Source of the DNA: Octopus sinensis
Lineage: Eukaryota
Assembly (NCBI RefSeq): GCF_006345805.1
Contig: NC_043006.1
Span: 20,336,001-20,400,000, forward strand
Length of the DNA: 64,000 nucleotides
Reading direction: 5' to 3'
Position numbers and translations under genes: made by a program
The notes under the pieces: model-generated
Told to the model about the DNA's origin: nothing
What the model saw: the letters and a program-made list of their open reading frames with translations, nothing else
The model's database searches: none
Shown: piece after piece, positions 17,761 to 59,261 of the stretch
How positions within the stretch are numbered: the first letter of the stretch is position 1
How the letters are laid out: the number at the start of each line of letters is the position of its first letter

Positions 17761-18866
17761 GGTAAGCAGCAAGCACAGAGAATACAGATGTGCAATGAAT
17801 GCAGAGGGTCACTGAGTAAAGAGGTACTGTGACTGCAATGGTGCAGTCAGTAAATACATGGGGGTCTGTGCATATGCAAAGTGCAGTAGAGTTAACCACA
17901 AACTTAGGTGTTCAAATCAAGTCAGAGCCTAGCTTTAAAGAAAATCAATAATTCATTTGCAGCCAAGTGAACAACAATTAACAACTAATAGACAGATGCG
18001 TGAACAGAACAAATAAATCTATCTGCATTCAGGCTAATATGACAGCTATTTATAAGGTAGGTTATTTGGCAAGGTGGTACTGTTTTAGATGTCACTTTTC
18101 ATGGAATTTTGCAGAAGATCTCACTACTTATCTATGCCAAAGCCACCAAGTTATGCAACAGAAAGCTTACATATCTCTTGTGAGAGAAGGGCAGCGAGAG
18201 AGAGAGAGAGAGAGAGAGAGTAGATAAAGGGTAGGTTTGTATGTTGTTCAACATTGTACAGTAGGTGAAATGCTGAAAGACGAAGGTTTCACACACATTC
18301 CACACAACCAAACAAGGTGTAAATCTTCACTGGCACACCAAAGAATGTGCATATTGTAGCATGTATTGCCAATAGAAAAAAAGAAAGAAGATAGATAGAT
18401 AGATAGATAGATAGACAGACTCCAGTCAGGTGACTCCAGTGATGCATGATCACATTATGATTATTCCTTGAGTGGGAGTCAAAAGTTATGTTACACATTT
18501 GCAATCATCCACTACAACTCTGAGCAGCAGTGCAACAGTGCCATGCACACATGCATGCATTTTAAAATTTCACTTAGGCATAGCAATACTGAAACCCTGG
18601 TGCTAGAACTCAATATACCATGCTTCAGAATAAAGCAATGAGTGCAGAGCATAATATGAAATTTAAAAAAATAACAAAGGAACAGTAATTGCATAATGAA
18701 CTTAATTCCTGTTCTGTTGTTGTTTCTTTAATTTCACACACACACACACACATTTTTGGGATATATACTTTTAGGGAAGTTGATAGTTATGGCTGGTCAG
18801 AGAGTGACCATTGGTTTTGGACCTATAAAGCGCTTGGCCATAGAGGCGACTCAGACTCACCAATTT

Positions 18867-18919
18867 GAGTCTGATGAGTCACCTATATGACTTTATAGGT
18901 GTGAAACCTATGGTCACTC
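18867..18919 (+). ncRNA. Type-I hammerhead ribozyme motif
   Basis: GAGU-CUGAUGA-GU-CACCUAUA-ugacuu-UAUAGGUG-U-GAAA-CC-uau-GG-UC-ACUC: full core, helix I 4 bp, helix II 8 bp plus a G.U closure with one bulged U, helix III 3 bp, GUC cleavage triplet at 18913-18915. Confidence 0.75.
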
Positions 18920-18965
18920 TCTGACTGGCCATAAAAATATATTACTGCTCTAATGAGCTACAGAC

Positions 18966-19057
<92 letters not shown>

Positions 19058-19059
19058 AC

Positions 19060-19262
19060 AAGAAGGTTTACGAAAATAAACAAAAGACGAAGGCAGGTGG
19101 AGTACAAACAAACAAATGTATTAGTATGCCGCTCAGGAATAGAAATAGAACAAGTCTTTTACGTTTCGAGCCTACGCTCTTCGACAGAAAGATACACAGA
19201 AAAAAAAACAAGGAGAGAAACAAGGAGAGAAAAAAAATGCGTGTAGGAGCTAATGATCTATC
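19060..19262 (-). mobile_element. Penelope-like repeat fragment with minimal hammerhead-like motif at 19155-19192
   Basis: Next to (TA)n; minus strand reads UCUUU-CUGUCGA-A-GAGC-guag-GCUC-GAAA-CG-UA-AAAGA; related copies at 48300-48500 and 54543-54632. Confidence 0.6.
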
Positions 19263-22200
19263 TCCAGAGAACTTCACTAACAATGTACTAGTGCTGCTTT
19301 TTCTAACACATCATGGCATTACGTTTTCACTACTATTTAGTAATATTTTTCACAGCTGACAGGAATGGCAAAGTCTGGGATCTTGCCAATTATTTGGAGT
19401 TCATATTCTACATTGGGTGTTTGTTGACTGTGTCTAATACTCACCACATGGAGCAATAAAATAAATACAGGGGGGGGGGCGTTTCAATTGACTGCTTCCT
19501 TTTCTACAAAATTAACTCTAGTGCGTGCATGCACCTGTGTGTGTGTGTGTGTGCCTATATATGTGTGTATGCCTATATATTGAAGAAAGGCAATACAGAG
19601 GAGTCATTCAGCCAAAAGCCATTGTACTAGAAAGAGGTGATGTCACAATAATTGGCCATATACCACAATGATAGACTGTAAGCTCAGTTAGGATTACTGT
19701 GAAAAAAAAAAGGCTGAAGCACAAAGAAACTGCAGGAGATTGTGTGTGTGTGTGTGTGCGCGCATACCTTTGGGTAATCATAAACAATGATGCTGATGCT
19801 GTGTAGTTGTACATAAATCAACAAACAGGTAAGGTTTGTGAAAAAAAAACAAAAAAACATCCTGAAACATGACTAAAGAACTAAAATATAAGCAGCTATT
19901 AGTTAACTAGAATCTGTTCTTCCAGCTGATTAAGCACACAGAGGTAGATATTACATACAGAGCTCTAGAACACAAACTGAACTAAAATAAACAAATATTG
20001 AAGATGGAGAGCTTTCAGGTACAAAGGCACGTCAGGCGTTTGTGCTTGAAATATATATGAAGGTTACTTAATTCTTCTTTTTCACATTGTTAGAAGCTCA
20101 CTGTTTTCATTATTCGTTTTATTTTACTTCTGTAACAACAATGCTTCAAGCAAATTACAAAGCTCTTTTCACAATCAGAACCACACAACTACCTATTTCT
20201 TTATTACCCACAAGGGGCTAAACAAGGACAGACATAGGTATTAAGTCGATTACATCGACCCCAGTGCGTAACTGGTACTTAATTTATCGACCCCGAAAGG
20301 ATGAAAGGCAAAGTCGACTTCTACCACTGCTAACAACACACCACAGCTACTGCCACTGCTCTCAGTACTTCTGCCATAACATTCAATAACCATTGGCTTT
20401 AGTACTCAGAGTATCAAGCTAAATACTAATTCTTACTCTAAATGTCTTGAAGAAGCCAGTTAAGCATGCAGACGTTGGTCAAGTGAGATGCAACAACTTA
20501 ACAGAAGATATATGATATTTCAAATGGAATCAGTTGCAGTTGATATTTGATTCCAACAGTATTGAAAGACATTCAGGAATTTAAACTAATTAATGACTAA
20601 TAATGATTTCTTAACAAAATTTAATTTAATTGCTATTCATATTTCGTTGGTATGGTTTCATTTCAATAAATTAATTTACAAGCTAATTACTTCTGTTTAC
20701 TGAAATATCTTTGCCTTACTTCTGTAAATTTTTTGCTGACTGTTGATGTCTGAAACACAACAGTTCCACAGTGGACCCAACATTGTAAGTGTATAGCACT
20801 TAAAATGTAGACACAAATGAGGCACGACACTAGCCGTTTCTCCTTTTGTTTCAGACAAACTCCTCTTTAGAGACTGTGTGTGTTAAAAATACTGCTCACA
20901 CTGAATGACGTCAGTAAACCATCAGACGCTAGTTTCACCTTTTCACTGACAGATTTATTGGTCATTTAGAGACAGGTCAGAACTTTTGTTCCTATACGGA
21001 AATGAACAAACAAAACGCTAGCTGATTAGTGCAGAAGCTTACCCTGGCTTCACTTACAACAATGTATGCATTTGAAATAGTATTAAATTACAATAACAAT
21101 GACTAACATTTATAAAATATATATTTTTTTCTTTTGTGCAAGAGTAAGTCCTTTTTGGAAACTGTGTGTATTAGAAAGATAGTTCTATCTGATATCTGAA
21201 TGGTGTTAGTGGACCATCAGACACAGGTGTTTTGACTTAACTTCATCTCCTTGGTGTTGGCTACCCAACCAGTCACTTAGAGCTAGGTTAGAACTTTTGT
21301 TCCTATATAGAAATCAGTGCATACATTGATTCAACCAAAAATATAATTTTATCAAGGCCAGATAATCTAAGGATAAAGGCCCTCTCATTGACTTGAGAAT
21401 AAGATCTATGTTAAGCAATACAAAGTATGCTTAATGATAAACAATACCAATTTTACCTGTTGCTGCAATGTGCAATGTAAAACATCAAATGTAAGCAAAT
21501 TTATCCCCCACTCTCTCACTACAGATTACTGAATTACTCTTAAAGATAAAAAAAATTGGTAACTGTGGGTATCATTTGACTATATGTTACATCAGAGTAA
21601 TTAAGCAATTAATTTCTGTAGACTAAATTTACTGCATTATTTTAATTCTTTTATTTTTTTATGTGGGCTTGAACAGAATAGTTTGTTGGATCCGATCTGC
21701 TTCATAATTTTTTTTTACCAACTTTTAGACATAAGGGTAACTTGTACACACGATCATTTGCAAGATTAGAGGGAAGGAGAGAAGAGGGTGCCCTCAAACC
21801 AGAGATTTAACCAGAATGCTCAAAACTGAGTGGACTCTGCTAAAGGTACCCAAGGCAGCAGGTGGTGGTGTTAAAACCAGGTGACAAAAGTGTACTACCC
21901 ATGTCGACTGTAGCAGGATTTGAACTAGAACAAGTACCACAAGGCCTCTGGGCTGATATTCTTAAACTTCTGTAAGTCCACATTCCTGAATTGGTACTTT
22001 TCTCATCAAGTACAAAGGATGAAAGGTGAATTTGACCTTGGTAGTATTTGAACTTAAAGTGCAATGTGTCAGAAGAGATAGTGTGAGGCATTCTAACCGA
22101 TGGTCTAACAATTCTGTCAATTTACTGCCTCCCAGATGAAGAGAAATCAGATTCTAGTAGAATTTGTTGTCCCATTCTCTTTTAATTTTGAAATGTTCAA

Positions 22201-24074
22201 ATAACTCTGGATGGATTTGGATGAATTCAATTTACTGTAAAAACCACCACACCTATACAAAATTACTAGATGTACCTACAGTTACTTGTAGCTGTGCAAC
22301 TGCTAATTATATGAAGCATGTGAGCAAGATAAAAGCTACAAGAAGACCACAGAATGAATAAATAACAAGCCATAGTTTTGTGAGCATTCATCCTTCTTGC
22401 TCTCTTCACCCACCAACTCTGACATTTCTTAAGTGTAGACAAAAGCCCCAAACACAACCAGACATTACTTTGATGGCATGGAAGAGTTAAATGACCACGT
22501 CAGACATTACTTGATTCCAGCATAATTATGGAGGAGACAATAAAAGATTTTCTAACAATATTCCTGTCACACCTGAATGGCCTGTAATGTTATCATTATC
22601 CAAGCTAGATGTTATATACAGTTCTTTTACATTTGACATTTTGTAGAAATGTCACCAAATCAAACAGAAGAACAGAAGAAGCAAAATTATTTTGATGACA
22701 ATGAACTATGTTAGTATGAGTAATACGGCAAATATGATTAATTTATCTATAGCTTTGGACATCTGATGAAAGAAATAAAGCTGTAAGTGAAAGAGTAAGA
22801 TCTGTTTGTTAGTTTAATGAAGTGAAATATTCAACCTTCCAAAGTTAACATCTGTCAGATGGCCTCACACAAACCCCTGTTTTCTTCTAGAGATATAGGT
22901 AAATGCTTACATATGTATATATATATACATACATATAGATACTTCTTTCACTATGTATGGATAAGAAAACAAGAATTTTAGTGAAAAAAAATTGTTGCAT
23001 TTGGGTATGCCATAATTTATTTTAGGAAATTTTGCCAAGGTCACTATGTTCCAAATGAACGTAGTGTTCTCTTTTGCACACTGCATCTTATTGCTCTGAT
23101 ATCCTATTTTTCTTTCAGCTCATTTGTGTTCTGCTAGCATTAATATCTGATGAAGAAGCATGTTCTCATTCCTTTCCAGCCTACATATATCCTTCATATT
23201 TAATGCCCACTGCAACCATGCAACGTCACACAAATCTACCTTTTGACTCAGCAGGAATAGCTTATCTTGCCAACAGAGATAATAGCTTCCAGAACTTTTC
23301 CCATCTTATCTTTTTTTCCTTCTCAAGCTACCATACTTTCAGACCACTCTATTTCACAACTAACTGGGTCACCTAGGTAACATAACAGAAGCTATCAAAT
23401 ATTCCCACAGAGCATTTTGAGCATTTGAAATAATTCATTTCACAGGCGCTCTTACTGATAGCTAGTTCTGTGTATCAGCTCCATAAAAAAAAAGTACTCT
23501 TTCCATCTCAGTTTTGCTGTGATCTCACTGTATCTCTTCTACATTCAAAGTTTACCGTTTTCCTGTGCACCTAGGAAGGCGTCCTACCAGATAGCAGTAG
23601 AGTCCTGTTTTCTTTCCTCTTGGTTAACACTTTTGTTGTTGTTGCTAGAATAACTTTCAGGACCCCCCCTCAATTTCTAAGCTTTCCATTCTTGTTTGGA
23701 ACTTCTTTTCTAAATATTCATCAAATTCAGCCACGTGAGTGTAGTGGGTGCTTTTTACGTGCCACCTGCACTGGAGCCAGGCGAGGCTGGCATTGGCCAC
23801 GGTCGGATTGGTACATTTTACGTGCCACCTGCACGGAAGCCGGTCGAGGCGGCACTGGCTTCGGCCACGATTCGGATGGTGCTTTTTACGTGCCACTCAC
23901 TGTTTCAATTAATGAAGAATTTAGAGGAATAACATGGCCATTATTAAGTAGCTGTTTGGAACATGAATTAACATGAAATTTTGATGGAAGGTTTTAATAA
24001 AGCTATTTAAAAGAAGCTTGCATCACAGAACTGGTGGTGGTGGTCTCAGGTGAGTTGGTACCAAATGGATTAGC

Positions 24075-24310
24075 AGCACTTTTCGACTATATAACTGTCA
24101 ACTTAATAAGCTATTCCTTCTGTTGAATTTTCCTCAATTAGCCCTTTCCATTTCCAGCATTCTCTTCATCCGGTAACTTCAAGTAGCAAACATTTCCACG
24201 CTTCTTTCTTCTCGGCATCAGTGGAGATAAGTGCACGGCCGTAATTCCATAAATAATTTTCACCAACAACAACTTGCTTTGAAATCTTGAATGCCTCATT
24301 GTAAAACACC
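24075..24310 (-). mobile_element. Decayed RTE-type LINE fragment (pre-RT linker)
   Basis: Minus-strand peptide LISTDAEKKEAWKC resembles the RTE ORF segment preceding the RT domain; disrupted. Confidence 0.55.
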
Positions 24311-25173
24311 GACAAACCTCTTACCATCACCGTCTCTCACATACAACTACCTGATATTATTTCCTTCCCCCACACTTCTTCCAATCTTTCCAGTTCCGTC
24401 TCACACACTACCTGGCTCTATCTACAATACCACTTGATCACCTTGTTACCTTCTGTCTGTCCATTGATCTTGTCTGTTGCTTGCAGCAAGCTATATCATA
24501 GCTTTCTTCCTCTTACTCTTCTGCCTCAACATATAATTCTCTCTCTTTATCTCCTCTCTGCCTTCTAGAACTTCTCTGAACTTAAGTTTAGCAGAAGGAT
24601 CTTTCAGCTGCCATACCTTCCTTATATAGAATTTATTTATAAGGTAAGCTGACTGAAGCTAACAGAAATACATCTAGACCGTTACAATAACTGAACCGAT
24701 ATTTTAATCTATGCTCATATATTGTTTATTGTCCTCTACCTAAACTAGATAGCAGCTTCTTCACTTCCAATATTCAAGAAATTAATATGAATTTTACAGA
24801 TTAGAGATTTTACAGATTAGAGATTTGAAAAGAATTAAAAACTGAACACATTAATTCTTAAAAACAAGAACAAAACAATGTATGAACCAGACTTAAAAAA
24901 AAAAAGAGAATTAATACTGCAGAAATCCCATATCTGTGAACCTAATTAAGCTTTTTTGTCCATCACCACCACTATCATTTTAACTGATAACAGTTAACTA
25001 TTAATTATAACCTGCTTCTCACACACACACACACACACACACGTACAGAGTGTTTCCAATTGAATTCATTGAGATTATGTGTCACAACCAATCTAATTGG
25101 AGGGTTTATGAGATGGAGCTGAATCTGCTCTGCTGTGAAATCTCAATAGCAGACATCTTTTCTAATTCTGTAT

Positions 25174-25403: not shown

Positions 25404-25598
25404 TAGGCGCAGAAGCCCACCTTCCACGGGCATGTTCAATGGTCAAAATATTACTACAGTGCTTATAGATAGTTTGACAACAGCCAACTGACCATTCACA
25501 ATGATTACTGGACACAGGCAGCAGAGAAACAAGCAAGGTTTTTTTTCTTCTTTTTTTTTTTTTTTGTAAAGGTGAATAAATAAGACAATCATTCTTAC

Positions 25599-25671
25599 TT
25601 CTTGATATTTTGGAATGGAAACTGGTTGTGAAGGTTGGGTGATGCTTGGCGTGGACTGTCCATAGGACTTC
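25599..25671 (-). CDS. MAST: MAST kinase exon (G)SPMDSPRQASPNLHNQFPFQNIK(K)
   Basis: Pyrimidine-rich acceptor ttttgttttccag, donor gtaaga, 73 nt, phase 1 to 2; matches the conserved MAST SPLDSPR...F.F segment. Confidence 0.93.
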
Positions 25672-28169
25672 CTGGAAAACAAAAGAAAAGAAGACTGATG
25701 TTATATTGGCATTATTAAAGAACAATGAAGTTAAAAACAGCAGCTGAAGCAACAAAAGATGCCTTCTTTGTTGTTGTTAATAATTGTCAATCTAGTTTGC
25801 TTCAGGATAATAGTTCCATCTTCAGCAAGGTTTTCTCTTTATCATAAAACAAACAAAAATCCTTCTATGTGGCTTGGTTAGAATCCAATGGTTTGTGGGG
25901 TCTGTCATGTCTTCTACTCACAAACAAGATTCAAGAAGGAAGCAAATGAAATATCAGTCTTGATCAAATTAAGTTTGGACAAAACAATGGGAGAAAGCAA
26001 ACTCGTTTCTCAGAACATAGGGAGCTGAAGGGAGACATCAAAGTCAGATTTTACAATATTTGCATTACATTGTGTACATACACACAAACATATAAGGTGG
26101 CTTGTTGGCAGAGTTGTTAGGACATCATACAGATTAGTTGTAGTAAATGTTCTGGTTTTCTATACTTTGAGTTCAAATCATGACAGAATCAACTTTGTCT
26201 TTTATCCTTTTGAGGTTGATAAATAAAAGTACTGCAGTCCTGAAACTGCAATCAATTCTTGTTCTCACTCCCTTTCACTCTGTCTTTCTGACTTTCTCTC
26301 CTCTGGAAGAAATCAGCTGTTGTTTTAGACCTGGAGAAGGACGGACTCTGCCAAGTTTAAAAGATGCCCAAGACAAAGTAAGGCTGCACATACACACATG
26401 ATGGTCTCCTTTCAGTTTCTGTCTACCAAATCCACTTACAAAGCGCTACATAGCAATGAAACCAAATCCACTTGGTTGGGAAGCAAACTTCATAACTATG
26501 CAGCCATGCCAGTGTCTAGCATGCATGCATTTACATATATGAATAAATTAATATAAATACATATTTATTTAATGCTACAAGCTATTAATGTCAGAGATTG
26601 AAATCCTAAAACAGTAGTAATGTTACTGGGAAACAAGGGCATCCAGTAGATTTTTTTTTTTATCAGAAAAGTGTAATTAATATGATAGATTGCCAAAGCT
26701 ACGGGGCAAGAATATGTATAAGTGCTTGGTGTAGCATTTGAAGAAATCAAATTGAATAGTGGAAGTTCAACCATCAGAAAATATATTTCTAAACATCTGT
26801 CATTGGAACATCAAGTGTACATAAATAACAATGGATTAGAGTGTCATGTTCAGGAGCTTACAACATTGAAGGATGTTAAAAAAAAGGCAATACAACTGAT
26901 ATCATGAAGACAGTTTCACAAATTTAGATTTGAATATTATTCCTCAGATCAGTATGAAGTGTGACACTATCCACAGTTATTTCTAATAACCTCAAAATTG
27001 TAATTATTGAAAATGGTATGGTTGTATGGATATGAAGTGTATTTTGAAATGATGGGGTTTCAATTTTCTTTTTTTTTGTTACTGTATGACATCTCAGACA
27101 AGTGTTTTCTAATGCACCTTTGGGCTGAACAACGCTGTGTGAGTAGCAGTGGTATGTGGAAACAGTATGAAAGCCTGCTGTGTGTTTATATTTGTGTGTA
27201 CAGGTGTAAATATTTACATTGTGTCTTTGCATGAAATCATTTGAGCAAATCTGTGACATTGTGTTGGTATTCTCTGTTAACAATTTCAGCCTATAGCTCA
27301 ATGCATTCAAGGATGAATGAAATAAGAAGTTCCCAACATAAAATACAAGTAAAGTATAGCAACAAGAAGGCATCCTGTTGTAAAATAACGTCTTACTAAA
27401 AAGTTTTCCGCCAACCCATGCTACCATGGGAAAAACAGGATGTAAAACAAACCAATGAAACACACTCCAAGTATCCCAAAATATATATGTATTGTAGTTA
27501 TTGAAAATATAATAATGTAGTTATTAAAGCATACATATATTGTAGTTATTGAACTCAATGAATACAAGAAGAAAAGAAAACATACTTTCACACATTTATT
27601 CAAACAAACAATATATACTACAAATGTATATACGAAGACTGCAATATTGTGAATACTTTCCTATTTATTCACTTTTATTGAACATAGCTTTCAGTTGTGC
27701 GTAAATACATACATATATACTACCTATCTATCTAAATAAGTGTGTGAGCATACGTGAGAGTTGATATTGCAAATAAATCATTACATTTCTAAGAAATATA
27801 ATGGAAGTTCGGTATAATAGAACTTCTCTATCCAGTAATGTTTGTGACGATAACAATTGCTGTTTCTCATACACCATGTTGAATGAGAATAACTACTCTT
27901 ATTCTGTATTCAGATTTATTTTTCTGACTATTACAACTAATTCATTTGAAAAGCTATTTTGACAATCTAAATACACACACAGACAGCACCAAGATATCAC
28001 ACTTGACTACCTAAACCTTCACTCAATGTTACAAACAGATTTAAGAAATGCAATGACAGTCAATTTCCACTCTAAAGATTCTGTCTTTACATGAGAAAAC
28101 ATGTATACAGTTGTACCTCCATGCTTGCATGGGTTGGGTGGAGAGGTATTTAAAGAAAGATTTTTATGG

Positions 28170-29542: not shown

Positions 29543-29584
<42 letters not shown>

Positions 29585-31290: not shown

Positions 31291-31377
31291 ATGTATTTGC
31301 ATGTATGCATGTATATATATATATATGCATATATGTACATATCTATTTGTATATATACCTATATAAAAACATATCTA

Positions 31378-34030: not shown

Positions 34031-35379
34031 TCCACTTTCATCTGTTCACTGAAATCTGATGACAACCATCCGTTCTCTAGATATTTAGCAGCTAAACAAT
34101 CCTATCTATTCCACCAGTATCACATATGCTTGCCCCACCTGCTCTAGTCTAAGTTCAACATGTACCACCTTCAATAAAGCATACACATATGATGATAGTG
34201 GTGGCAGTAATAAGTAACAATTGTGGTTGCATCTCCCCCAACATTCTGGTTCTTCTCTTCATCTCCTGTGGAGGCGTGTGGCTTTTCGACCCACTGTAAA
34301 CCCGTCTTTTAAGTGAGAATGTAGAATTACAGGTATTGCAGTTTAGGACATCCAACGAGGCTCTGTTGAAAGACAGGATACAACCCAAGCTGAAATACTG
34401 TTGACCAGTTTGCTTTCTTGAAAAATACATACATTCTCACTGCTAAGTGACATTATTTCCAGTGTTAGGACATTCCCACTTCACTTATCTTCAACTTCTA
34501 GTTTGATGTGTCTGTCACACAATGATAAAAAAGCAAAACTAGGATAGTTAGTATATCTGGCCAGCTCCTGCTTTGATGGGATTGTTCTGTGTTGACACAA
34601 TTCTTACAGTAACAACGAAAACAACTTTCAGTGACTTTTGCATCACCTAGAATGGTGCTTAATGTACAGACAGTGTACCACTGACCACAATCAAACAGCA
34701 CTACTGTTGTATTTATTGCCCCATGGACAGGGCACTCTAACTACAGCTGGCTCAGATGCACAAAGAACAGGTTCCTTTTTCTATCTATAAAAAACAATGG
34801 CTCAAAAAAATAAACCATTTCATTTAAGTAAACATACAAAAATATGTGTGTGTGTGTGTGTATGACTCTCTTCTCCTCTCTGTGTCTTAACTCTCTTTCT
34901 CTCTCTCTCTCTCAGACGTTTACATGTAAAAGTTATTCCAGCTTATTTCTTCGATGCATTTTCTTAAAATTCCCCCAAATAAGACTTGTAATAAAGGAAC
35001 TATAAAGTGCTACTTCTAGCAGCGCTTGTAGAGACTATACTGCAAAGTTTGTGGCTATACATAAAAGGAAGAATAGCAAATGTGTTAAGATTCACGCAAA
35101 TCAACAAGCTTGATGATATGTTACTTAAAAAAATTACTTCTGAAATTCAAATGATGTGAATTTGAACAGGATATCTATTTTTACATATCACAGGTCACAA
35201 TCCATTTAGTAGTAATCTGTGTGTGTGTGTGTGTGTGTATACATAATCATCAGCATCATTTAAAATCTGTTTTCTATACTAGAATGGGTTGGATGGTTTA
35301 ACAGGATTCAGTGAGCCAATGAATCCTCTTAAACCATCCTCTATATTTGTTTGTGTGTGTGTGTGTATACATAATCATT

Positions 35380-36116: not shown

Positions 36117-36552
36117 GTAATATTTATTTCCCACTTAAACATGGATGCTCTGTTAGAGCAAATTATGTTGTAGTAGATACCATGATAGAAACCCTCTCAT
36201 ATTGGCTTTTGGTGCAAAAATGCTCTCTTGGTTATATCACTAGTGGGGAAATAAAACCCTGCTATTTCCAGCGATGAGACCACCAGATCACATGGTTTTG
36301 ACCTTCCTTGGGTTTCATCACTGGCATGAAGATCAGTCACTGCTATCTCTAACAGTCGAGTGTCCATCTTTAATGATGAGACCAAGGAAGGTCAAAATCA
36401 CATGGTCTCGGCACTGGAGATAGCAGGGATTTATCTCCCAACAAATGATATAAGCAAGAGTGCTTTCTGCATCAAAATCCAATATGAGAGTTTCTCTCAC
36501 AGTATAGTTTGTTCCAATAGAACATTCACGTTTAAATGGGGATAAATATTAC
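36117..36552. repeat. About 435-bp fold-back (inverted repeat) element with roughly 200-bp diverged arms
   Basis: Left arm gtaatatttatttcccacttaaac...ctcatattggcttttggtgcaaaaatgctctcttg...ccctgctatttccag is the reverse complement of the right arm ctggagatagcaggg...caagagtgctttctgcatcaaaatccaatatgag...gtttaaatggggataaatattac. Confidence 0.9.
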
Positions 36553-37719
36553 CTCCCAGTATTGATACTGCCTCTGTTGCCAATATATATATATTTCTAA
36601 CATGTGTATGTGTGTATACATACATGTATGCATTTATACATTTAGCGGTCTGGAAAATAAGTGACCTGAGAAAGTGTTTTCTCTGTGAATATATATGGGC
36701 TGAAAGCCAAGATCTGAAGTCCGGGTGGCGTTTCAGTATCTTCAGTTTTGGCTTTTCCAAGGAGAAAACAGCAAGAAGAGAGGAAGGAGTGTTTTGATAA
36801 ACAAAACAGATTAGTAGAAGAGACACACATTCACAGCAGAGGTACATGTGTGTGTTCTTTAATAATATTTCATCTCAGCTGGTTTGGCATACAGAACTGT
36901 ATCTCAAATTCCATTGTACGAAGTAAATAAGAAACAACTCTGAGATGGGCTGCTTACTCAATTGCAGAAACAGCAGTTACACTTTACCTTGGCACTTTAT
37001 TATGTTTCATCAAAGAAGACTGAAAGCGAACAAATGCCATGAGATGCCATCAATCTTTTTTGTATGCAAACGGAGATGTGCTATCTCTAACTCCTTACGT
37101 TTTGATTGTCAGGTTGAGATAAGTTGAGATAATATAAAACAATTATAGCAATACAACAACAGCCACAAATAAACAATTTTACTACTGCCTTAAAAACAAA
37201 AAGAGCATCTCTGGTTATGGAGCAGGATTTATATTTATGCTCCTTTTCCTACGCTTTAACATTATTATTATTGAACTTAACCAGACAGAATAATTGAGGG
37301 TTTAATTTAAGATGATTACTTGGTAGAATAGAGGAAAATTTATAGCTATATATATATATATATATGTTAGAAACATTGCCAGATCAGACTGGGCCTGGTG
37401 TAGCCTTCTGGCTTCCCAGACCCCAGTTGAACTGTCCAACCCATGCTAGCATGGAAAGCGGACGCTAAACGATGATGATGATGATATATATATATACATG
37501 CATAGGCATGTGACTTAGTGGTTAGAGTGTTGTACTTATTTGCAGTTTTGGTTCCCAGACCAGTGGTGCATTGTATTCTTGAGCACAATACTTCACTGCA
37601 TGTTGCTCTAGTCCACTTGGCGATATTCTGTTCAAGGGGAATGCCAGCTGTCCTGCCTAGCCACCAGTGTGGTATCATTTGAAAGCTACAATAATGAGAG
37701 GAAGCGCATTGTGAGCAGT

Positions 37720-40548: not shown

Positions 40549-40764
40549 TACACAGAGTGCTGAAAAGTTCCTGGCTTTGGATGAAAGAAATTACAGGAGG
40601 ATCAGTTAATTATGATTTCATTCAACATATTCCCTTCTCACACTTACTGCAGTGATCCTTCAGTTTTTCCGAAGCCCTGTAAAAGGACTCAGAAGGTTGG
40701 GCCTCCAATCAGGCTTTTTGTTTTAAAGCCTTACAGCCAGGAACTTTTCAGCAAGCCCCTTGTA
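40549..40764. mobile_element. Tc1/mariner-type MITE
   Basis: Terminal inverted repeats tgctgaaaagttcctggct / agccaggaacttttcagca with TA-rich flanks. Confidence 0.75.
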
Positions 40765-42349
40765 TATATATGAAGCAGAGACTAAACAATTGTAAAAGAA
40801 CACTGAATAATGTTGTTTATAATAAACCGATATGCAATGAGTGTGTAAACACTGTGAAATACATTAGGTGTAAACATGATAAAGATACAACAAACCTAAA
40901 CCAAGCTGACATTTAGCTAAAGGCCATTCTCATACCAAGAAACAACAACTTTCAGTCAACGACCCTTGATTAGTTCAGCTCCACTGGACACTGCAATGGA
41001 CACCTTTATGCATTACTGCTGTGTTTACAAACATCAAACATTGCAGGCTTGGCTGTTGGTAAAAAGCTTGCTTCCAAACTACATGGTTCTAAGTTCAGTC
41101 ATACTGTGTGACATCTTGGACAAGTGTCTTCTACTATAGCTCAGGGCTGACCAAAGCCTGGTGGGCAGATTTAAGCCTGTTGTATGTGTGTGTATGTATA
41201 TGTACAAACACACACACACAGAGGTTAGCAAGAGTACCCAGCCATAGAAACCAAACCAAATCAAACTGGAACCTGGTACAGCACTCAGTTTGCCAACACT
41301 GGTTGAACCATCTGACCAATGTCAGCATGAAAAGCAGACATTAAAGGATAATGACAAAGATGATATATATGTCATCATCATCGTTTAACGTCCGCTTTCC
41401 ATGCTAGCATGGGTTGGACGTATGACTGAGGGCTGGCAAACCAGATGGCTGCACCATGCTTCAATCTTGATCTGGCAGAGTTTCTACAGCTGGATGCCTT
41501 TCCTAGCGCCAACCACACCGAGAGTGTAGTGGGTGCTTTTACTGCCTCTATGTGTTCATACAATCTGGTAGAAATAGTAGTTAAGAGTTTCATCACACCT
41601 TACTGTCTTTTGGAAAAAAAAAAAAAGAAAACTGGGTAATGTAGTAGTAGTAGTAAACACAGTTTATTTAAATAAAAGATTGGATGGTCATAACTGGAAC
41701 AAACCTGATCATGTCTGATGGATAAGAGCTGGAAGAAGAGATTGAACCCGCCACCACGACCATCATTATTTGTAAGAACCTAGCAAAGCAAGTAGTTTGA
41801 TTACAAGTGTTTGGTTTCCAGCAAAAACAGCCACAACTTGACATTCTGCAATTCTTCACAAACACTTTGATGTTTCAAGACTGCCAGACAAGGATTATAA
41901 GAGTCTCTCTTTCTGCCTCATTTAACCAAATCACATTTCACCAGTTCTACATTGCACCACCACCACCACCACCACCATCAATGCCATCACTGTTCCACTG
42001 CCACCACCCAGCTTTTGGTTTAGCTTCACTGAAATGACCATGCATGGCAGCGAGAATATAGAACATAAATTCTATAAAGCAGGAAGTGTTAAATAATTTG
42101 TTTTTGTTAATGTGCCTCATCGGCATCCCACCCCCCGGTTACACCTGTATTCTGTTGGCACGGCGACTGTGTGTGTGTGTGTATGCGTATATGCATGTGA
42201 GTAATATAATATACCAAAGGCATAAGGGAATTAAGATTTGGACTATAAACTAAATGGAAAATAAATTAGTAAACAAATTAAATAAATATGGAAGTCTATG
42301 ATCCGGGTGGAACTGAAATAAAAAGTAGAAGATATGGAAGGGAGGGAGG

Positions 42350-43346: not shown

Positions 43347-43798
43347 TAACCCTTTTGATACCAACCCACCCAAGGCTGCCTTTGCTACTGATGCAAACTC
43401 CAGGTATCGAAGTGATCTAGTTAAAAATTACCCATTAACCCTTTCATTACTATATTTATTTTGAGATGCTCCGTGTTTCTTTCAATTATTTCAAATATAA
43501 CAAAGAATTTAGTAAAATAACTTTGTTATCATTCAGCTAGTGTTAGGAACATAAATTTTGATGAAGATTTAGTGGAAGGTGTGAATTCAAAACTTATGAA
43601 AACAAGACATTTATACTAAAGGGCCAGAGCCGGTTTCAGCTGGGTTGGTAACTAAAGGGTTAAGCTTCTATGTTAATTTATGTCCCATTACCAGCTTAGT
43701 AATGACCAAAATATCTTAGTATGTTCTTTATTATTTTTCAAAATTAATTGAAATAAACTAACTGTAAATCAACAGAAATATGGTAACAAAAGGGTTAA
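43347..43798. mobile_element. Nested piggyBac-type MITEs (inner element 43435-43663)
   Basis: Host taacccttttgatacc...ggtaacaaaagggttaa interrupted at a duplicated TTAA by a related element in the opposite orientation. Confidence 0.85.
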
Positions 43799-48299: not shown

Positions 48300-48500
48300 T
48301 ACGCCATGATAGGTCGTTAGCTCCTACACGCATTTTTTTCTCTCCTTGATTTTTTCTGTGTATCTTTCTGTCAAAGAGCGTAGGCTCGAAACGTAAAAGA
48401 CCTTTTCTATTTCTATTCCTGAGCGCTATACTAATACATTTGTTTGTTTGTACTCCACCTGCCTTCGTCTTTTGTTTATTTTCATAAACTTTCCCGTTAT
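48300..48500 (+). mobile_element. Second copy of the 19060-19262 Penelope-like repeat, opposite orientation
   Basis: Near-identical reverse complement; hammerhead-like motif at 48363-48400 with core CUGUCAA. Confidence 0.6.
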
Positions 48501-49828
48501 ACATATATATACACACATATAACGGTGAAGAATGTTTGTGTGAGACGTGTACTAAAGTTACTCCCTACTCTGCGGTACCAGTTAGTTGTAGTTTGTAAGA
48601 AGTATACAGGCAAGCTCTTAAAGAAAAAGCTAAGGAATATTGGATTTCCTTCTTTTCAAAAACATCTTTTTATTTTTTTCCCCAGCATCAATCCCACTCC
48701 CATCTTCCTCCCACACTCACTTCAATGTCTATTTCAATGAGACAACTTTTCAAACTACTGTGACAAATGATGATGATGATGATGACGATACTGGTAATCC
48801 TTTCTCCTGTAGGCACAAGGCCTGAAATTTGGGGGGAAGGAAGACAGTTGATAACATTGACCCCAGTGCTTGACTGTGACACTTTTTTGCATCAATCCTG
48901 AAAGAATGAATGGCAAAGTAGACTTTGGTGAGATTTGAACTCAGAATGTAAGGATGGGCAAAATGCCACTAAGCATTTTGTTTGGCACAGTGAAGATTCT
49001 GCCAATTAGTTGCCACCATATTAATAATAATAATGGTTTCAAATTTTGCCCCAGGGGCAGCCAATTTAGGGGAAGAGAAGAGTCGATTACATTGACTCCA
49101 GTATTCAATTTGTACTAAATTTATCGACCCCAAAAAGGATGAAAGGTAAAGTTGACCTCAGCAGAATTTGAACTCAGAACGTAAAGACAGACGAAATACC
49201 GCTAAGCATTTTGCCTGGTATGCTAACATTTCTGCCAGCTCCTTGCCTTAATAATAATAATAATAATAATAAACTAAGGATAATATTAAACTGCAAAGTC
49301 TACTAAAATTCTTCCTAAATATGGCCAATTCAAAGGAATAACTATGGAATTGTACAACGGTTCAAAAATCATATAGGAAGCAAATAAACAAGAGCTCAGA
49401 ATGTGAAAACCAGGAAATTAGACCCCAACCACTCAGGAGTGAATAAATCTATTAAAATGAAAGAGAAATTTGAAAAAGAGGAGTAGGGAAGTGTCAGACT
49501 AATACTAGAAATAAAAAAAATTGTAGGCGTAAAATGCACTAGTGTTTTCAGTTATAAACTACAGCTCAACATATTTTACTGAAGTTAAGTGAAGTTAAAA
49601 GCATAGGCAGATGAAAAAAAAAAAAAAGAGGTAAAAAACTGATAGCATTTCTAAGTCATTATCACAAAGCTGATGGAGATAGAATATATCTACTCTGCAC
49701 ATAAAAGCAATGTCTGATACAAATAGTGAACTACTTACTACAAAATAACAACAGTGTGACTAGAAAAACACTTTGAAGCAAGAAACTGTCACGTGTAATA
49801 AAGAAGCTATACATATATATACATATAG

Positions 49829-49876
<48 letters not shown>

Positions 49877-51392: not shown

Positions 51393-51432
<40 letters not shown>

Positions 51433-52104: not shown

Positions 52105-52156
52105 AATGTGTGTGTGTATACACAGACACATATTTATGTATGTGTGTGTGTGTGTG

Positions 52157-52205
<49 letters not shown>

Positions 52206-52244
52206 TATATATATAATATAATATATAATATATATATGTATATA

Positions 52245-52275
<31 letters not shown>

Positions 52276-52607
52276 TGTATATATAATATATATATTTAAT
52301 ATTTATATATATGTATAAGTATATATATATGTGTATATAATATATAATATATGTATATAATATAAATATAGTATATATATATACATTATATATTATATAT
52401 ATATATATATGTATTAATATTATATATAGTATATAATATATATATATATATGTATAATATATATATAATGTATATAATATATATATATATGTATATAATA
52501 TATATATGGTGTATAAATATAAATATATGTATATAATATATATATATGTATATATATTACATATATATATATATATATACATATATATATACACATACAC
52601 ACACACT
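52105..52607. repeat. About 500-bp degenerate (TA)n array
   Basis: Direct inspection. Confidence 0.95.
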
Positions 52608-52756
52608 GTATGCTTACTGATATCTACTTCCTAGTACATATATAATATATATTGGTACAGAAGGAAGTAAATATCTGTAAGAGTAACAGAGTGTGTTTAA
52701 AACATCTGGAATGTTTCAGCTCCATATTAAATACACACACACACACACACACACAT

Positions 52757-52790
<34 letters not shown>

Positions 52791-52814
52791 TATATATAAT
52801 AATAATGATGATGC

Positions 52815-52848
<34 letters not shown>

Positions 52849-52927
52849 AAGGGATGTTACCTTAGTTCACTGGTAGTGAACAGCTGACACCGTAGTATAT
52901 CTCCAGCATTAGAAGCTGTGCAAAGGC

Positions 52928-52960
<33 letters not shown>

Positions 52961-55547
52961 CCTTTCTACTAAAGATACAAGGCCTGAAATTTTATATATA
53001 TATATATATATTTTACATGTGTGTGTGTGTGTGTGTGTGTGCATGTTTGTTTATTGGCCTCTGTATTCTTTCTGTATAAGAGAATTTTTTTTTTTATTTT
53101 GTTTCCTTTTACACTTTTTAAAAAATCAGTTTTTGATGAAGTCGAATTGCAGTAAAAAACAAACAAACACACAAAACAAAACAAAGCAAAGCAAAGCAAA
53201 AACAAAATAGAAAGTGTAAAAGAGAGACTGCTGAGGTGAGGCGAAACAGATAAATAAGAAATAAATCTGCATCCAATAATGATATGGTGGGGGGGTGTGT
53301 GTGAATGTTTCTATAGAGAGTGTTCTATCTGATGAGTGGCTGGCTGGTGGTACTTAATTATCTTTTTATGATCGAACACCGGGTGGGGGGGGGGGAAGAA
53401 AATATTAAATTAAAAGGATCCATCCAAAGCATAAATATGTGTATAAGAAAAACAAAAGCATACGCGATTAGCAAAAGTTATTTATTTATTGGTTTGCGGA
53501 TACAGACAGAATCCGTCTATGGAAAAATCAGTGATTGGAAATACATAGGAGAGAGAGAGAGAGAGAGAGAGTTTGTGTATCTATTGTGTTTGTGGTGCAT
53601 TGAACATATTGATAAATCAGGTTGATTATTTATTTATAAATTAAACTAGCAGACTGAAGAATTCTCAAGAGGAACGGAATTGTAATTTAGAGACCAATTG
53701 CAGTCATAAGTGAATAAGACTAGACAGCATTTAATTAACCTAACACACACACACACACACACAAATTTAGAAGATCATAATGTATATATACACATGAATA
53801 AAAAATTATGAGCAATGACAATTTATATGTAGCTCACAATGATAGGGTGATGGTGGCGGAAGTTTGTTTACAAGGAAAGTTATGCAAAATGATAAGCAGT
53901 TCAGAGCTAGAATGAATATCTTGTGATATTTATGAGGAAGAATTACATTAAACTGTTTAACAGTAAAATCATTAATACAAATGAAATAGATGTAATTCCC
54001 GGAAGGAAACAACATACGTTAAATAAAACACGTTTCATTAGCCTTAATAATAATTCTTTCCTTATTGGCTACAAGGGCTGCCACAGTAACAATCCTTTGT
54101 ACTACATAGACACCAAAGCCTGGAATTTTCAGAAGTTGATTAAATTGCCCCCCAGTGCTCACCTGGTACTTGTTTTATTGACCCCCCCACAAAAAGGATG
54201 AAAGGTAAAAAACCAACCTCACTGGAATTTGAACCCAGAATGTAAAAACAGATGAAAGGCCACAAAGCATTTTGCCCAGGCATGCCAACAATTTGGCCAG
54301 CTCACCACCTTACTGTAACAACAATCTTTTCTACTATAGGTAGAAGGTCTGAAATTTTTGAGGAAAGTGACCCCAGTCCTTCGATCAACTACAAAAGGAT
54401 GAAAGACAGAGTAAATGTAGATAAAACCTGATCTCAGAACATAAGGACAAAATGTTGCTGTGCATTTTGTCAGGCATGCTAATGATTCTACCAGCTAGCC
54501 ACTGGTCTTTCTACTCTAGGCACACAAGGCCTGAAACTTGTAGAGAGCATAGGCTCGAAACGTAAAAGACTTTTTCTGTTCCTGAGCGTTAAACTAATAC
54601 ATCTGTTTGTTTTGTACACCACCTCCTGTCTTCAAGATAAAACAAAGAACAAACATGAACTAAAACCACACTATACATGCCAACCTCTTGACAAACACCA
54701 TCAAAACTTAAAAAGGGCATATTGCAATCAATGTTATGAATATAAAAGTGAAACTAGCTTCTAATTAAAAATATACTGTTTGGACAGCCTTGCTATGTGC
54801 ACTCTATATATTACCCTTTAGGACAACAAGGACAACTTCTACAACCCCAAATATGGGTTAATTAACCAGTCTGAAATTGAATTGAGAATTGCTAGCAAGC
54901 AGGCGTGGCTGTGTGATAAGAAGCTAGCTTCCCAACCACATGGTTGAACATAAATGACGGGCTTCTTTCAGTTTCCGTCCACCAAATCTTCACTCAAGGA
55001 TTTGGTCGACCTGGGGCTATTGTAGGAGACATTTGCCCAAGATGCCATGCAATGGGACTTGAACCAGGTGATTGGCAAGCAAACATTTTACTACAAAGCC
55101 ATGCCAAGCCAAACGAATGTGTGTGTGTGTGTAGAGAATATACACTCTTTTACTGGCTTAATCACTGAACACATCCTTGTTTGAGCACATTGTATTCAAT
55201 GGTTTTAGTCAACTGTCTCGACCTCTAGTACCAATCCTTATCAAATCACCGAGCTCGGTAATAGATCGTAAATCAAAGCAAATGTTTGTGAACGACACAA
55301 GAGAAAAAGAAAAAAACAATACATAATTACGAACCAATTATTAAACCTGAACTCCTACATGGTCCCTTTGGGTGAGCAAATATTCTAGCATGTGTACCGC
55401 TTGGATTTAGCTGTTATCCTTTCTTACTTGTGCACTGTGTCACTTCTCTCACATTATAGCTTGTGAGAAAACTAATTTCTAACGGATTTTAGTATTGCAA
55501 ATAATAAACCTATCAATAAGTGAATGCGAATATGATGCATATGTTTG

Positions 55548-55591
<44 letters not shown>

Positions 55592-56288
55592 GAACAAAAA
55601 GCTAAAACAGTAATACAAGGTTATAGAATGAGACACACCTACACACCTCCTCTGTCCTAGTTTCTCTAGCTTTGACTTGATAGGCAAGAAATAAGTCTGA
55701 ATACACAATGTTCATTATCACCACCACCACTACCACTACACCACCATTACCACGAATGTTCATGTCTCAAAGAAAAAAAAAAAAAAAAATCCCGCTTAAA
55801 GTCTTGCAAATTTCCTAGTAATAATACACACACTACATACATAGCATCATCACATGTCAACGACGTATGTGTGTGTGTGAATGTATGAGAAAGAGTGTGT
55901 GTTTAAAACTGGCTGCTGATGGTGGTGGTGCGATAGGCTGAGAAGCTGTTTAGTCAAGTTAAAAAGGAAAAAATCTTGACATAATAGGTTCGCCTCTCAA
56001 ACTCTATATTTATATATTTCAAAACACCTTGAGAATACGTTAAGTTTTCTGAGCAGCACAACACCACATCACACAACACACAACGCTCACAGAAACTAAA
56101 CCTTCACGTTTAATATATGCAGTAGCACGTGGTCAGTGTGAGTGTGCACGTTATATATATTTATACATGTACATATTCTACACACACACACACACACACA
56201 CACACAGATACACAATTACGCAGACTTATACATACATGTATATGTATTCCTTTACATGTTTCAGTCATGTGACTGCGGCCATGTTGGA

Positions 56289-56323
<35 letters not shown>

Positions 56324-56811
56324 TATAAGGTGGTGCCCCAGCATGACCACAGTCAAATGACTGAAACTAGTAAAAGGAAAAAGGATAAAAGGATATATAT
56401 AAAATATATATATATATAAAAAAATATATATATATATATATATATAAAATATATATATATATTTATATTTCAGTGAGATGGAAAATAATGTTTATTTTTG
56501 CATATTTCCACTTATTTATTTATATTTGAAATGCTTCCTTCTACTTTTTTGAATTGCAAAGTCTTTGATCGGATCCTCAAAATTAATCTTAGGTAACACA
56601 CCTGCAACTATACTTGGTAGAGATAAAGGCATCCTGAATATTATTTAAGCAAGTTTGAAGTGATTTCTTTTGTGCCATCAACCATTTACCATTTCTGTTG
56701 TGCCCCCCCACCCTTCCCTCGATGCTCTGAGCACGTGCTTATTTTGCTTAATGGTTAATCCAGTGCTGCATATATGGGCAGAATTCCATGAAGTGTGTAT
56801 GTATGTGTAGA

Positions 56812-56967
56812 CAGTGGCTGTGTGGTAAGTAGCTTGCTAACCAACCACATGGTTCCGGGTTCAGTCCCACTGCATGGCATCTTGGGCAAGTGTCTTCTGC
56901 TATAGCCTCGGGCCAACCAAAGCCTTGTGAGTGGATTTGGTAGACAGAAACTGAAAGAAGCCTGTCG

Positions 56968-57002
<35 letters not shown>

Positions 57003-57196
57003 CTGTGTTTGTGTTTGTCCCCCTAGCATTGCTCGACAACCGATGCTGGGTTGTTTACATCTCCGTCACTTAGCGGTTCGGCAAAAGAGACCGATAGAAT
57101 AAGTACTGGGCTTACAAAGAATAAGCCCCGGGGTCGATTTGCTCGACTAATGGCGGTGCTCCAGCATGGCCGCAGTCAAATGACTGAAACAAGTAA

Positions 57197-57198
<2 letters not shown>
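56812..57198 (+). mobile_element. SINE family A copy
   Basis: Reverse complement of the 452-872 and 14594-14965 copies. Confidence 0.85.
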
Positions 57199-57228
<30 letters not shown>

Positions 57229-57372
57229 GAGGGCATTATACATACATATATAAATTAATATGTTCAATAAGAAATAATTATTTTCGAAATTTTTTCTCTT
57301 ATGAGGTTTTCACGCTATCTACCTGACAATTTCTTGTTAAGTTTTCCTTATTAAGTAGTTGTCCTTAATTGC

Positions 57373-57419
<47 letters not shown>

Positions 57420-58750
57420 ATTTTATGTATTTGATGTGCAACACGCATTTATACACATTCATGCATGCATACCATATATAATCAATATATACACAACGAA
57501 CAAAATGTAACAGCAGTATACATTCATTCGATGTGTTCCATTTATATCATGCTATATAAAATGTTCCTTCACAATTAATAACAACAACATAACCAAAGGA
57601 TCTTCCTTGAGATTAAAAAAAAAAAAAAATCACCTAATTATTTTGTACCAACCTCATATAAAAATTATATATATATGTATGCTATATTCTGTCTCAGGTA
57701 ATTAATTAAGTAGCGTGATTAGATGAGCAAAAACAAAACACATGATCAAATAGGAAGCGGATAAGGTGCGTGGAGAGTTTGTGCATGCGGAAGATAGGCA
57801 TACTCATATTTACAAGCGATATAACCCACGTGAGCTTCGTGGTTTTCTGAAATACTAAGCCTTGTTAATAAGTCTGTTTCAAACAGGAAACCAAAATTTG
57901 GTCTCACATCTGGATTTAAAAAAAAAAATTTTTTTTTTTAAATAAGACAGGAACTGAAAGAAACCTATGTGTGTGTGTGTGTGCGCACACACACACAGAT
58001 GCCTCTCTTTGTCTTGATATTTCCTGATAGTTGTAAAAATTGACGCTCTCATACAAGCAGCGTCATTCATTTCTAATATTCTGTATGGACACACCTGGCT
58101 ATAGGGAAATATCACTTCTCTCAAAAAAAAAAAAAAGAGAGGGCTGACCTTAGAAAGGGTATCCAGCCATAGAAAAGCCTGTTTCAATAAACTCCATCTG
58201 ACCCATGCAAGCATGGAAAAGTGGATGTTAAATTAAAATGGTTATATGATGACAAGTCAGGTGGGAAAAAAATGTTCATAATCCCTTTTCAGGGCCTGCA
58301 AGATTGGTGTGAGGGAGGAAAGAAGGTGTTCTCTAGCCAAAGAACTTGCCCTGAATACTTGTAAAAGAATGAATTATCCAACAGATAGATTAAGTCAAGT
58401 ATACCAACTCAGCTCCCTAACTAGAAATTATTGGAACAGTGTGACGACAATACTCGCCAACCTACTAACCACTGAAGACATGCAATTATGTCATAGGGGT
58501 TCCATCCATCATCAGTTGGAGGCCTGAGATGGTGGGTAAATAAAGCAGGATTGGAAGCACTGTCTGCATAAGGTGACAAAGTGTCTTTAGAGGAGCAACA
58601 TATAGTACTTGCCACATCTATTTTTGCTTTTGTAATAGAAACCCAGAGATAAATGTCATTCATGTTAGAGTGTGTGAGAGATGTCAGATAAAAGCATATA
58701 TATGTGTGTGTGTGTGTTTGTGTATATGTATGTATGTATATATATACATA

Positions 58751-58796
<46 letters not shown>

Positions 58797-58861
58797 GGTC
58801 CCGGGTTGAGTCGGGGTTAACCACAGTAAATAAGGTACTCAATACATAGCAGAGTAAAGTA

Positions 58862-58993
58862 ATTTATTTTATAGAAGGAGCTTCTACAGGACTAGAACTG
58901 TTTCATTCAGATGAAATCTTCAGGAAGCTTCCTGAAGATTTCATCTGAATGAAACAGTTCTAGTCCTGTAGAAGTTCCTTCTATAAAATAAAT
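58862..58993. repeat. 132-bp loopless palindrome (66-bp arms, one mismatch)
   Basis: Centred on aagctt at 58925-58930; only mismatch is G58880 versus T58975; flanked by (TA)n. Confidence 0.97.
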
Positions 58994-59099
58994 ATATATA
59001 GATAGATAGATAGATACATACATACATACTAGTGACCACGTAAATGGAAAACAAGGTGGTTAAAATAGTACACTAATACTAAAGATAGAGTAATATGAG

Positions 59100-59261
59100 T
59101 TTTATTAAAGCCAAAATCATTTTCATAAACTGTCACTTGGAGTTTCACGCTACTATTCACCGGTCAGTTATTGGCTATGAGTACGATCACAAGTGTCTCA
59201 CAAATAGTAACATGAAACTCTGAGTAACAATTTGTGAAGATTTTTTGGGGCTTTAATAAAA
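59100..59261. repeat. Imperfect inverted repeat with about 60-bp arms (Penelope-like terminal pair)
   Basis: ttttattaaagccaaaatc...gagtttcacgctactatt mirrors aatagtaacatgaaactc...ggctttaataaaa; each arm ends in AATAAA. Confidence 0.8.

Follow-up and report, generated by a model that had tools for sequence, protein, structure and literature searches.

Four short inverted repeats, here called elements A, B, C and D, lie in and upstream of the exons of a MAST-type serine/threonine kinase gene in Octopus sinensis. The stretch analysed (the window) comprises 64,000 nucleotides of contig NC_043006.1 (assembly GCF_006345805.1, positions 20,336,001 to 20,400,000 of the forward strand), and all positions given below are those of the window. 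Based on the structure of the repeats, their hammerhead ribozyme motifs, their tails and their relatives in public DNA contigs, we consider it probable, at about 0.7, that A to D are stub-sized, head-to-head insertions made by Penelope-like elements (PLEs).

The four inverted repeats

18787..18934, no strand: element A, an inverted repeat in head-to-head arrangement, with 57/67 identity between the arms
36117..36552, no strand: element B, head-to-head inverted repeat, arms 164/202 identical, with an AATAAA-like hexamer near each outer end
58862..58993, no strand: element C, an almost perfect palindrome (65/66) from a highly abundant family
59100..59261, no strand: element D, an old inverted repeat, head-to-head (54/77), with (TA)n adjoining its right end

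Identity between the arms, counted over aligned columns, ranges from 70 to 98 %. A preliminary description, made from the sequence alone, had placed inverted repeats at these coordinates, and all four are present there. It had also called them unrelated, sharing no obvious primary sequence. This holds for the arms, which show no significant likeness between elements (six pairwise local scores, P 0.07–0.83), but not for the one-sided extensions of B, C and D, which have a motif in common. C has its centre at a palindrome of 6 bp, which is part of the 5′ strand of hammerhead stem I. No further copy of A, B, C or D is present within the 64-kb window. With regard to a possible coding role, Pfam gave sub-threshold matches only for the arms of B, and none above the cut-off in the frames of B or D.

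Hammerhead motifs in the arms

18867..18919, + strand: A right-arm hammerhead, a complete type I motif with a 4-bp stem I, CUGAUGA at 18871, GAAA at 18903, a short stem III and a GUC triplet ending at 18915
36373..36417, + strand: B right-arm junction, a hammerhead-shaped three-way junction without a working core
58926..58976, + strand: C right-arm hammerhead, complete type I, with a 6-bp stem I, CUGAAGA at 58932–58938, GAAA at 58951–58954 and a GUA triplet ending at 58970
58879..58929, − strand: C left-arm hammerhead, mirror of the right-arm motif, sense on the MAST strand
59186..59240, + strand: D right arm, hammerhead-like topology with a long stem I, GAAAC at 59214–59218, a GUA triplet and a dead box, CUCACAA, at 59197–59203

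A strict type I hammerhead descriptor was run over both strands of the window (128 kb of strand), with 12 shuffles as control. Three matches were found, in the right arm of A (+18871) and in the right (+58932) and left (−58923) arms of C. The shuffles gave between 0 and 4 matches each at this setting, therefore only a stricter setting, at which two matches remained, both in C, and the 12 shuffles gave one, goes beyond chance. The arms were also compared with 1,284 control tiles of the window using a graded hammerhead score designed for this analysis. No tile scored as high as either arm of C or the right arm of A. As high as the other arms were 25 tiles for D right, 33 for D left, 49 for A left, 107 for B left and 228 for B right; with both arms pooled the counts were 1/1,284 for A, 42/1,284 for D and 139/1,284 for B.

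The preliminary description held that each arm carries a hammerhead core. For both arms of C and the right arm of A this is supported, for D and the left arm of A the evidence is weak, and for B it is not upheld. The motif copy in the left arm of A has lost 3 nt from the box and carries G12A. In B, C3 is missing and G12A is present in both arms, and the TGATGA can instead provide, with good pairing, the 5′ side of stem I. When the two arms of D are compared column by column, both could descend from CUGAUGA. The C right-arm motif has a 3-bp stem II over a U-U pair and a 4-bp stem III. All of the motifs read outwards from the hairpin centre, as first described.

Another repeat, present in three copies (19034–19220, minus strand; 48334–48511, plus strand; 54544–54624, plus strand), carries a minimal type I hammerhead-like motif with a 5-bp stem I, an extra A after the box, a 4-bp stem II, a palindromic ACGU replacing stem III, and A6U. 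These copies are single-armed and lack the tail motif of B to D described below; two of the three end at TA repeats and two score above all 1,284 control tiles. They are likely to be PLE stubs of a different family.

One-sided tails and microsatellites

18935..18968, + strand: probable A tail, about 34 nt, running into a (TC)n(TA)n tract; seen in the window sequence only
36553..36582, + strand: B tail, 30 nt, ending at a short (TA)n run, shared motif at 36549–36568; likewise read from this sequence alone
58795..58861, − strand: C tail, 67 nt, ending at (TA)n, shared motif at 58835–58857; part of the repeat family
59034..59099, − strand: D tail, about 66 nt, ending at an (ATAC)n tract, shared motif at 59068–59093; part of the repeat family

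Beyond the boundaries initially assigned, each element extends by 30–70 nt on one arm only, ending at a microsatellite. A microsatellite lies within 4 nt of all four tail ends and of two of the four tail-less ends (C and D), that is, of six of the eight outer ends; the background proximity is 5.7 % within 10 nt.

In B, C and D, the tail has a common motif shortly after an AATAAA-like hexamer. A pattern derived from these three tails, built after the fact, finds these three sites and no other in the window (expected number 0.33). When all four tails are scored for sum-of-pairs likeness, 12 of 3,000 random tile sets and none of 3,000 shuffles are as high, and for the tails of B, C and D against control segments following ATAAA hexamers, 18 of 5,000 triples are as high. 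The resemblance of the A tail to the motif is weak and not significant (27 of 364 control segments as high).

C and D, which belong to different families and differ in age, lie 106 bp apart within one composite microsatellite tract (58757–59295), an apparent insertion hot spot.

The D tail ends in CTAG, for which reason Helitron-type ends were considered; they were rejected since the tails of A, B and C do not end in this way.

Relatives of C and D in public DNA contigs

Logan DNA contigs from four runs (X1, X3, X5 and X8, labelled as four organisms and chosen from 24 listed runs) were aligned to 58790–59370 at 80 % likeness, which covers C and D only; the repeats at 58980–59035 and 59255–59370 were skipped. 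No RNA run was among the holders listed, which is no evidence on expression. The results are given for the 24 of 427 loose-end rows, 32 of 18,565 pieces and 15 of 60 joints that were listed. Element D is identical over 219 nt (0 differences) in a contig of X1, perhaps the window's own sample, and was read again over 143 nt with 1 difference in a contig of X3; D is therefore no product of this particular assembly. For C, none of the listed contigs extends across the locus.

In X1 the depth over C reaches 1.18 million at 58870–58889, compared with 38.9 for the locus-specific contig; overlapping contigs are summed in this figure, which is not a copy count, yet it implies a C family of thousands of copies or more. 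The D family is less abundant, with a peak depth of 23,862 in the same run. Depth over the C tail (58810–58849) is close to that over the outer arm, therefore the tail belongs to the C repeat family. Tail-less C copies also occur, ending at 58862 followed by TA repeats in three of the four runs (X1, X3 and X5). The left extension of D is likewise family sequence: paralogues cover 59062–59149, and a joint of 59076 to 59242 on opposite strands is present in three of the four runs. The preliminary description had spoken of multiple families, which the contigs bear out for the two elements that they cover, C and D.

The listed variants of at least 5 % depth in the C motif (58884–58929) lie in loop 2 (58909, 58910 and 58912), at N7 (58919) and at one stem I site where the wobble pair is kept; the change at N7 gives CUGAUGA in 113,074 of a depth of 331,931 in X1. 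None of the listed variants falls on a conserved core base, and four of the five are at free positions (hand-computed P about 0.04). In both arms of C, loop 2 has letters seldom met in the family, such as at 58910, where another base is present in 401,751 of a depth of 421,247, mirrored at 58945; the two arms were therefore both copied from one template.

In 12 of the 15 joints listed, the left part of C is joined to the right arm at differing places, mostly in one contig each and across all four runs, and the C centre is crossed by one listed contig in X3 and by three in X8. Hairpins therefore recur among the paralogues and their centres vary. For D, one paralogous hairpin joint was listed, 59149 to 59220. 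Because both tailed and tail-less copies exist and the arms of paralogues join at many points, it is likely that the mirror arm is rebuilt at each insertion and not inherited as part of a fixed hairpin. Long loose ends, with an agreement of 0.40–0.50, pile up among the rows listed at 59185–59186 for D (three runs) and at 58918–58929 for C (X8). These positions are the 5′ edge of stem I, and the loose ends have no common upstream sequence.

Exact-pattern scans for the C-family motifs gave 0 loci in each of the metagenome, viral and prokaryotic collections, as is expected of an animal repeat.

Folding of element C

As a monomer with its tail, C has a hammerhead fold of −22.2 kcal/mol against a best fold of −25.3 kcal/mol, and as the whole hairpin a hammerhead fold of −42.0 against −113.5 kcal/mol. 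Adopting the hammerhead would thus cost about 3 kcal/mol in the monomer and about 70 in the whole element. On read-through from either strand, the antisense arm would be made first and the hammerhead trapped in a long duplex, so that no cutting, and a silenced C ribozyme, are predicted for the hairpin. Such a duplex would be a substrate for ADAR, and the hairpins in MAST pre-mRNA would be plausible candidates for A-to-I editing. Arm mismatches compatible with G-U pairing are divided 23 to 22 between the strands, giving no sign of selection for an RNA duplex on the gene strand. Depletion of intact cores in sense orientation within introns, proposed as a check in the preliminary description, is unworkable for hairpins because a sense core is present on both strands.

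Comparison with known systems

PLE insertions are described as having an inverted 5′-truncated copy, a 30–40-bp tail and a (TA)n bias, with Naiads and Neptunes favouring microsatellites (PMC8557442). Head-to-head PLE junctions with palindromes have been read as self-priming, with a tail on one inverted pseudo-long terminal repeat (pLTR; PMC3846280). A PLE protein from a lizard, studied in vitro, cleaves AT-rich DNA and uses two reverse transcription start sites, which mark off the tail, and hammerhead cleavage is not needed (PMC11167929). In Octopus vulgaris, 30 recently active Penelope families have been reported (PMC13282606).

Elements A to D share with the endonuclease-containing PLEs (Penelope/Poseidon, Neptune, Nematis and Naiad; Arkhipova 2013, PMC3846280; Craig 2021, PMC8557442; Frangieh 2024, PMC11167929) the head-to-head inverted ends, the junction palindrome, the tail on one arm, the occurrence of tailed and tail-less copies, the microsatellite or (TA)n targets and, by descriptor in C and in the right arm of A, a type I hammerhead near the 3′ end. 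They differ in that neither a reading frame nor a direct pLTR lies between their arms, which measure just 66–220 nt, and in that no autonomous partner was identified. Naiads, as described, lack canonical hammerheads, whereas C has one.

In Schistosoma mansoni, opposite-strand hammerhead pairs about 100–700 bp apart are ascribed to truncated PLEs (Cervera and de la Pena 2014, PMC4209133). Opposite-strand type I pairs close together, and many sequence families per genome, are common to that system and this one. The Schistosoma motifs are minimal, without helix III and with G10.1-C11.1, whereas helix III of C is 4 bp long and its 10.1-11.1 pair is U-U; the distance between cores here can also fall below 10 nt.

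Animal non-LTR retrozymes (Cervera and de la Pena 2020, PMC7229834; Li 2026, 10.64898/2026.07.22.740005) are also short and non-coding, with a type I hammerhead, presumed PLE dependence and monomer copies. They are characterized by head-to-tail tandem repeats and circular RNAs, whereas A to D are scattered head-to-head elements that start upstream of the core; at these loci there are single head-to-head pairs and no tandem copies in the window.

Octopus combines exceptional hyper-editing with a high genomic potential for long double-stranded RNA (PMC5625713). A palindromic Harbinger-class repeat of Xenopus tropicalis (Porath 2017, PMC5625713) resembles the present elements in that a single insertion forms long double-stranded RNA without a partner copy. 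That repeat is a DNA transposon with a fixed palindromic consensus and has been shown to be heavily edited, whereas for A to D editing is a prediction.

Insertion model and alternative explanations

Measured against the published features of PLE insertions, all four elements are head-to-head and inverted, with the 12 differing C joints providing the variability. The optional tail at one end belongs to the family sequence in C and D, and in A and B is seen at the locus itself. Type I hammerheads are found by descriptor in C and in the right arm of A, with none in B and a borderline case in D, and the bias towards AT-rich or microsatellite targets is seen in the outer ends. No direct repeat of any arm, as in a pLTR, is present in the window, an absence that is expected in such short stubs. 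The suggestion of a Penelope origin in the preliminary description is thus strengthened by the one-sided tails, the microsatellite targets, the 5′ ends at the hammerhead edge and the variable fold-back points. Its proposal of an undescribed class of elements is not supported in that form, since the architecture is that of published PLE insertions (PMC3846280, PMC8557442, PMC4209133) and the paralogues have no fixed hairpin centre; A to D are most likely new octopod cases of an insertion architecture already published.

By analogy with that published work, A to D are likely to be the shortest form of PLE insertion, consisting of a terminal segment, a fold-back at the start of stem I and a tail on one arm. 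A PLE reverse transcriptase with a GIY-YIG endonuclease would make these insertions at or beside microsatellites. The protein would cut an AT-rich or (TA)n target, and reverse transcription would begin at either of two closely spaced positions of the RNA, the stretch between them being the tail. Copying would then stop at the 5′ edge of hammerhead stem I, and some of the cDNAs would fold back on a short palindrome, in C presumably the 6-bp palindrome inside stem I, and self-prime a second strand, so that the mirror arm is made anew. B and D would be older copies, their ribozyme box being dead or never having been present in the source. The source RNA may be a full-length PLE or a short non-coding derivative.

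A number of observations weigh against this origin. Rfam hammerhead models gave no match to the right arm of C, the right arm of A or D at E≤10. The right arm of B matched only HH9, at 12.5 bits and E 2.2, and in a whole-window Rfam scan there was no ribozyme among the 150 of 182 matches listed, which were mostly miRNA models on microsatellites. As hammerheads, B is at chance level and D is borderline. No variant is listed in the contigs at the D box (59197–59203), in a sampling that is biased towards look-alikes; the dead box thus appears to be common to close paralogues, making simple decay at this locus less likely. The weakly populated stems of the C monomer (pairing probability 0.009 for stem II and 0.075 for stem III) mean that activity of C is not assured even as a single arm. 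The limits of the tails were placed by eye, those of C and D, at 66–67 nt, exceed the published 30–40 nt in length, and the tail-less ends are likewise somewhat above control (187/5,000). The tail-less left ends of A and B are 35 and 466 nt from a microsatellite, respectively. The flanks hold only TA-type or short chance matches, target-site duplications being unreadable in microsatellite flanks. A six-frame motif scan of the window found no reverse transcriptase or GIY-YIG motif, and no PLE reading frame linked to any element.

Eight short motifs were not found in the supplement of Naiad, Chlamys and Hydra consensus sequences, where line breaks may hide matches, and the displayed 3′ end of Naiad_Obim has no by-eye likeness to A to D. 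In the mainly open-access literature, neither these octopod families nor the tail motif were found to have been described before; Repbase, Dfam or the O. vulgaris repeat library may already hold them.

The same insertion chemistry could have acted on another template, namely short families without an open reading frame (ORF), each a hammerhead plus tail with its own fixed 5′ end. These would be PLE parasites resembling solo retrozymes or short interspersed elements, several of them sharing a terminal recognition motif. This is possible, though doubtful. The 5′ ends do cluster at the stem I edge without common upstream sequence, C is very abundant (to judge from its summed depth, which is not a copy count), and the tails of B, C and D share a motif that their arms do not; it has also been argued that non-LTR retrozymes, which have monomer copies, derive from PLEs and are non-autonomous (10.64898/2026.07.22.740005). 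However, a preferred stop on full-length PLE RNA would cluster the 5′ ends equally, and longer copies may occur beyond the 24 of 427 loose-end rows listed. The copies start upstream of the core and not at the cleavage site expected for processed retrozyme monomers, nor is there any tandem arrangement at these loci. A more speculative extension, which we regard as unlikely, is an octopod superfamily of ORF-less hammerhead-plus-tail retroposons of 130–250 nt. Their bodies would have diverged beyond recognition around one conserved terminal signal (TTAC, then GTATT, then TAC, shortly after AATAAA) read by a PLE reverse transcriptase, and the ribozyme would be dead in some families. A part of them would fold back into perfect hairpins, in thousands of copies, as a major source of the long double-stranded RNA behind hyper-editing.

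That the elements are ordinary miniature inverted-repeat transposable elements (MITEs) with terminal inverted repeats, or one-off inverted duplications, with hammerhead letters by chance, is improbable overall, most tenable for B and less so for D. Their scores are within the control range, Rfam gives no support, and other fold-backs of the window, such as 40558–40753, have no convincing core; TA-rich flanks are also in keeping with Tc1/mariner MITEs. Against this, the motifs of C and A are above all controls, and B bears the tail motif of C and D at the equivalent position. Symmetrical termini and a fixed consensus and spacer are not seen in C and D, where one-sided family tails and variable centres are unlike such elements. 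Very improbable is the distinct class of the preliminary description, ribozyme-hairpin elements spreading as fixed palindromic units. It has in its favour four such hairpins in 64 kb, the hairpin paralogues of C in all four runs and that of D (59149 to 59220), but the junctions vary between copies and a tail depth close to that of the outer arm fits mostly single-arm copies. In addition, confinement in the duplex would put the ribozyme at a disadvantage of about 70 kcal/mol, and monomeric hammerhead stubs of another family are present in the same window. A PLE-made insertion is the preferred reading for A to D.

Gene setting and other features of the window

A DUF1908 exon in the window points to a coleoid cephalopod, with matches of 95 % to MAST kinases in Argonauta and 93 % in Acanthosepion. 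By tblastn, twelve exons were located on the minus strand between 195 and 25672; they code for DUF1908 and the first part of the kinase domain of a MAST-type serine/threonine kinase. Element A is intronic in this gene, between the exons at 25598–25672 and 15224–15307; B, C and D lie upstream of the exon ending at 25672. The first 186 residues of the cuttlefish MAST protein were not found in the window by tblastn, therefore B, C and D are probably in a long MAST intron or upstream of an alternative start. A short ATG-started frame at 62363–62596 (minus strand) ends near a GGTGAGT donor-like site and is a possible alternative first exon; its likeness to the cuttlefish MAST N-terminus is loose and by eye (TRRR), and it gave no Pfam or tblastn match. 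The region 17023–17911 is tandem-repeat-like, with long low-complexity open frames in three frames of the minus strand.

Other fold-backs are present in the window, none with a strict core: an element bounded by terminal inverted repeats and pairs of common repeats around microsatellites. The former, at 40558–40753, is 196 bp long with 19-bp perfect terminal inverted repeats and resembles a Tc1/mariner-type MITE. Further local fold-backs are at 56247–56379, 41238–41493, 11984–12156, 52596–52699, 43435–43798 and 35291–35339. Several of these consist of partial copies of common repeats in opposed orientation, with a microsatellite between or next to them; all are additional potential sources of double-stranded RNA.

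Implications

If this interpretation is correct, a large share of the short octopod palindromes that are annotated as unknown or labelled as MITEs would be Penelope-type insertion stubs, which bears on repeat annotation. Tiny high-copy insertions with two types of end and many fold-back points would provide a natural data set for the mechanism of PLE integration, including where copying starts, where it stops and how the inverted arm originates, and the shared tail motif names a candidate cis-signal. In view of what has been reported for octopus (PMC5625713), self-contained hairpins such as C would be concrete candidate substrates for its hyper-editing.

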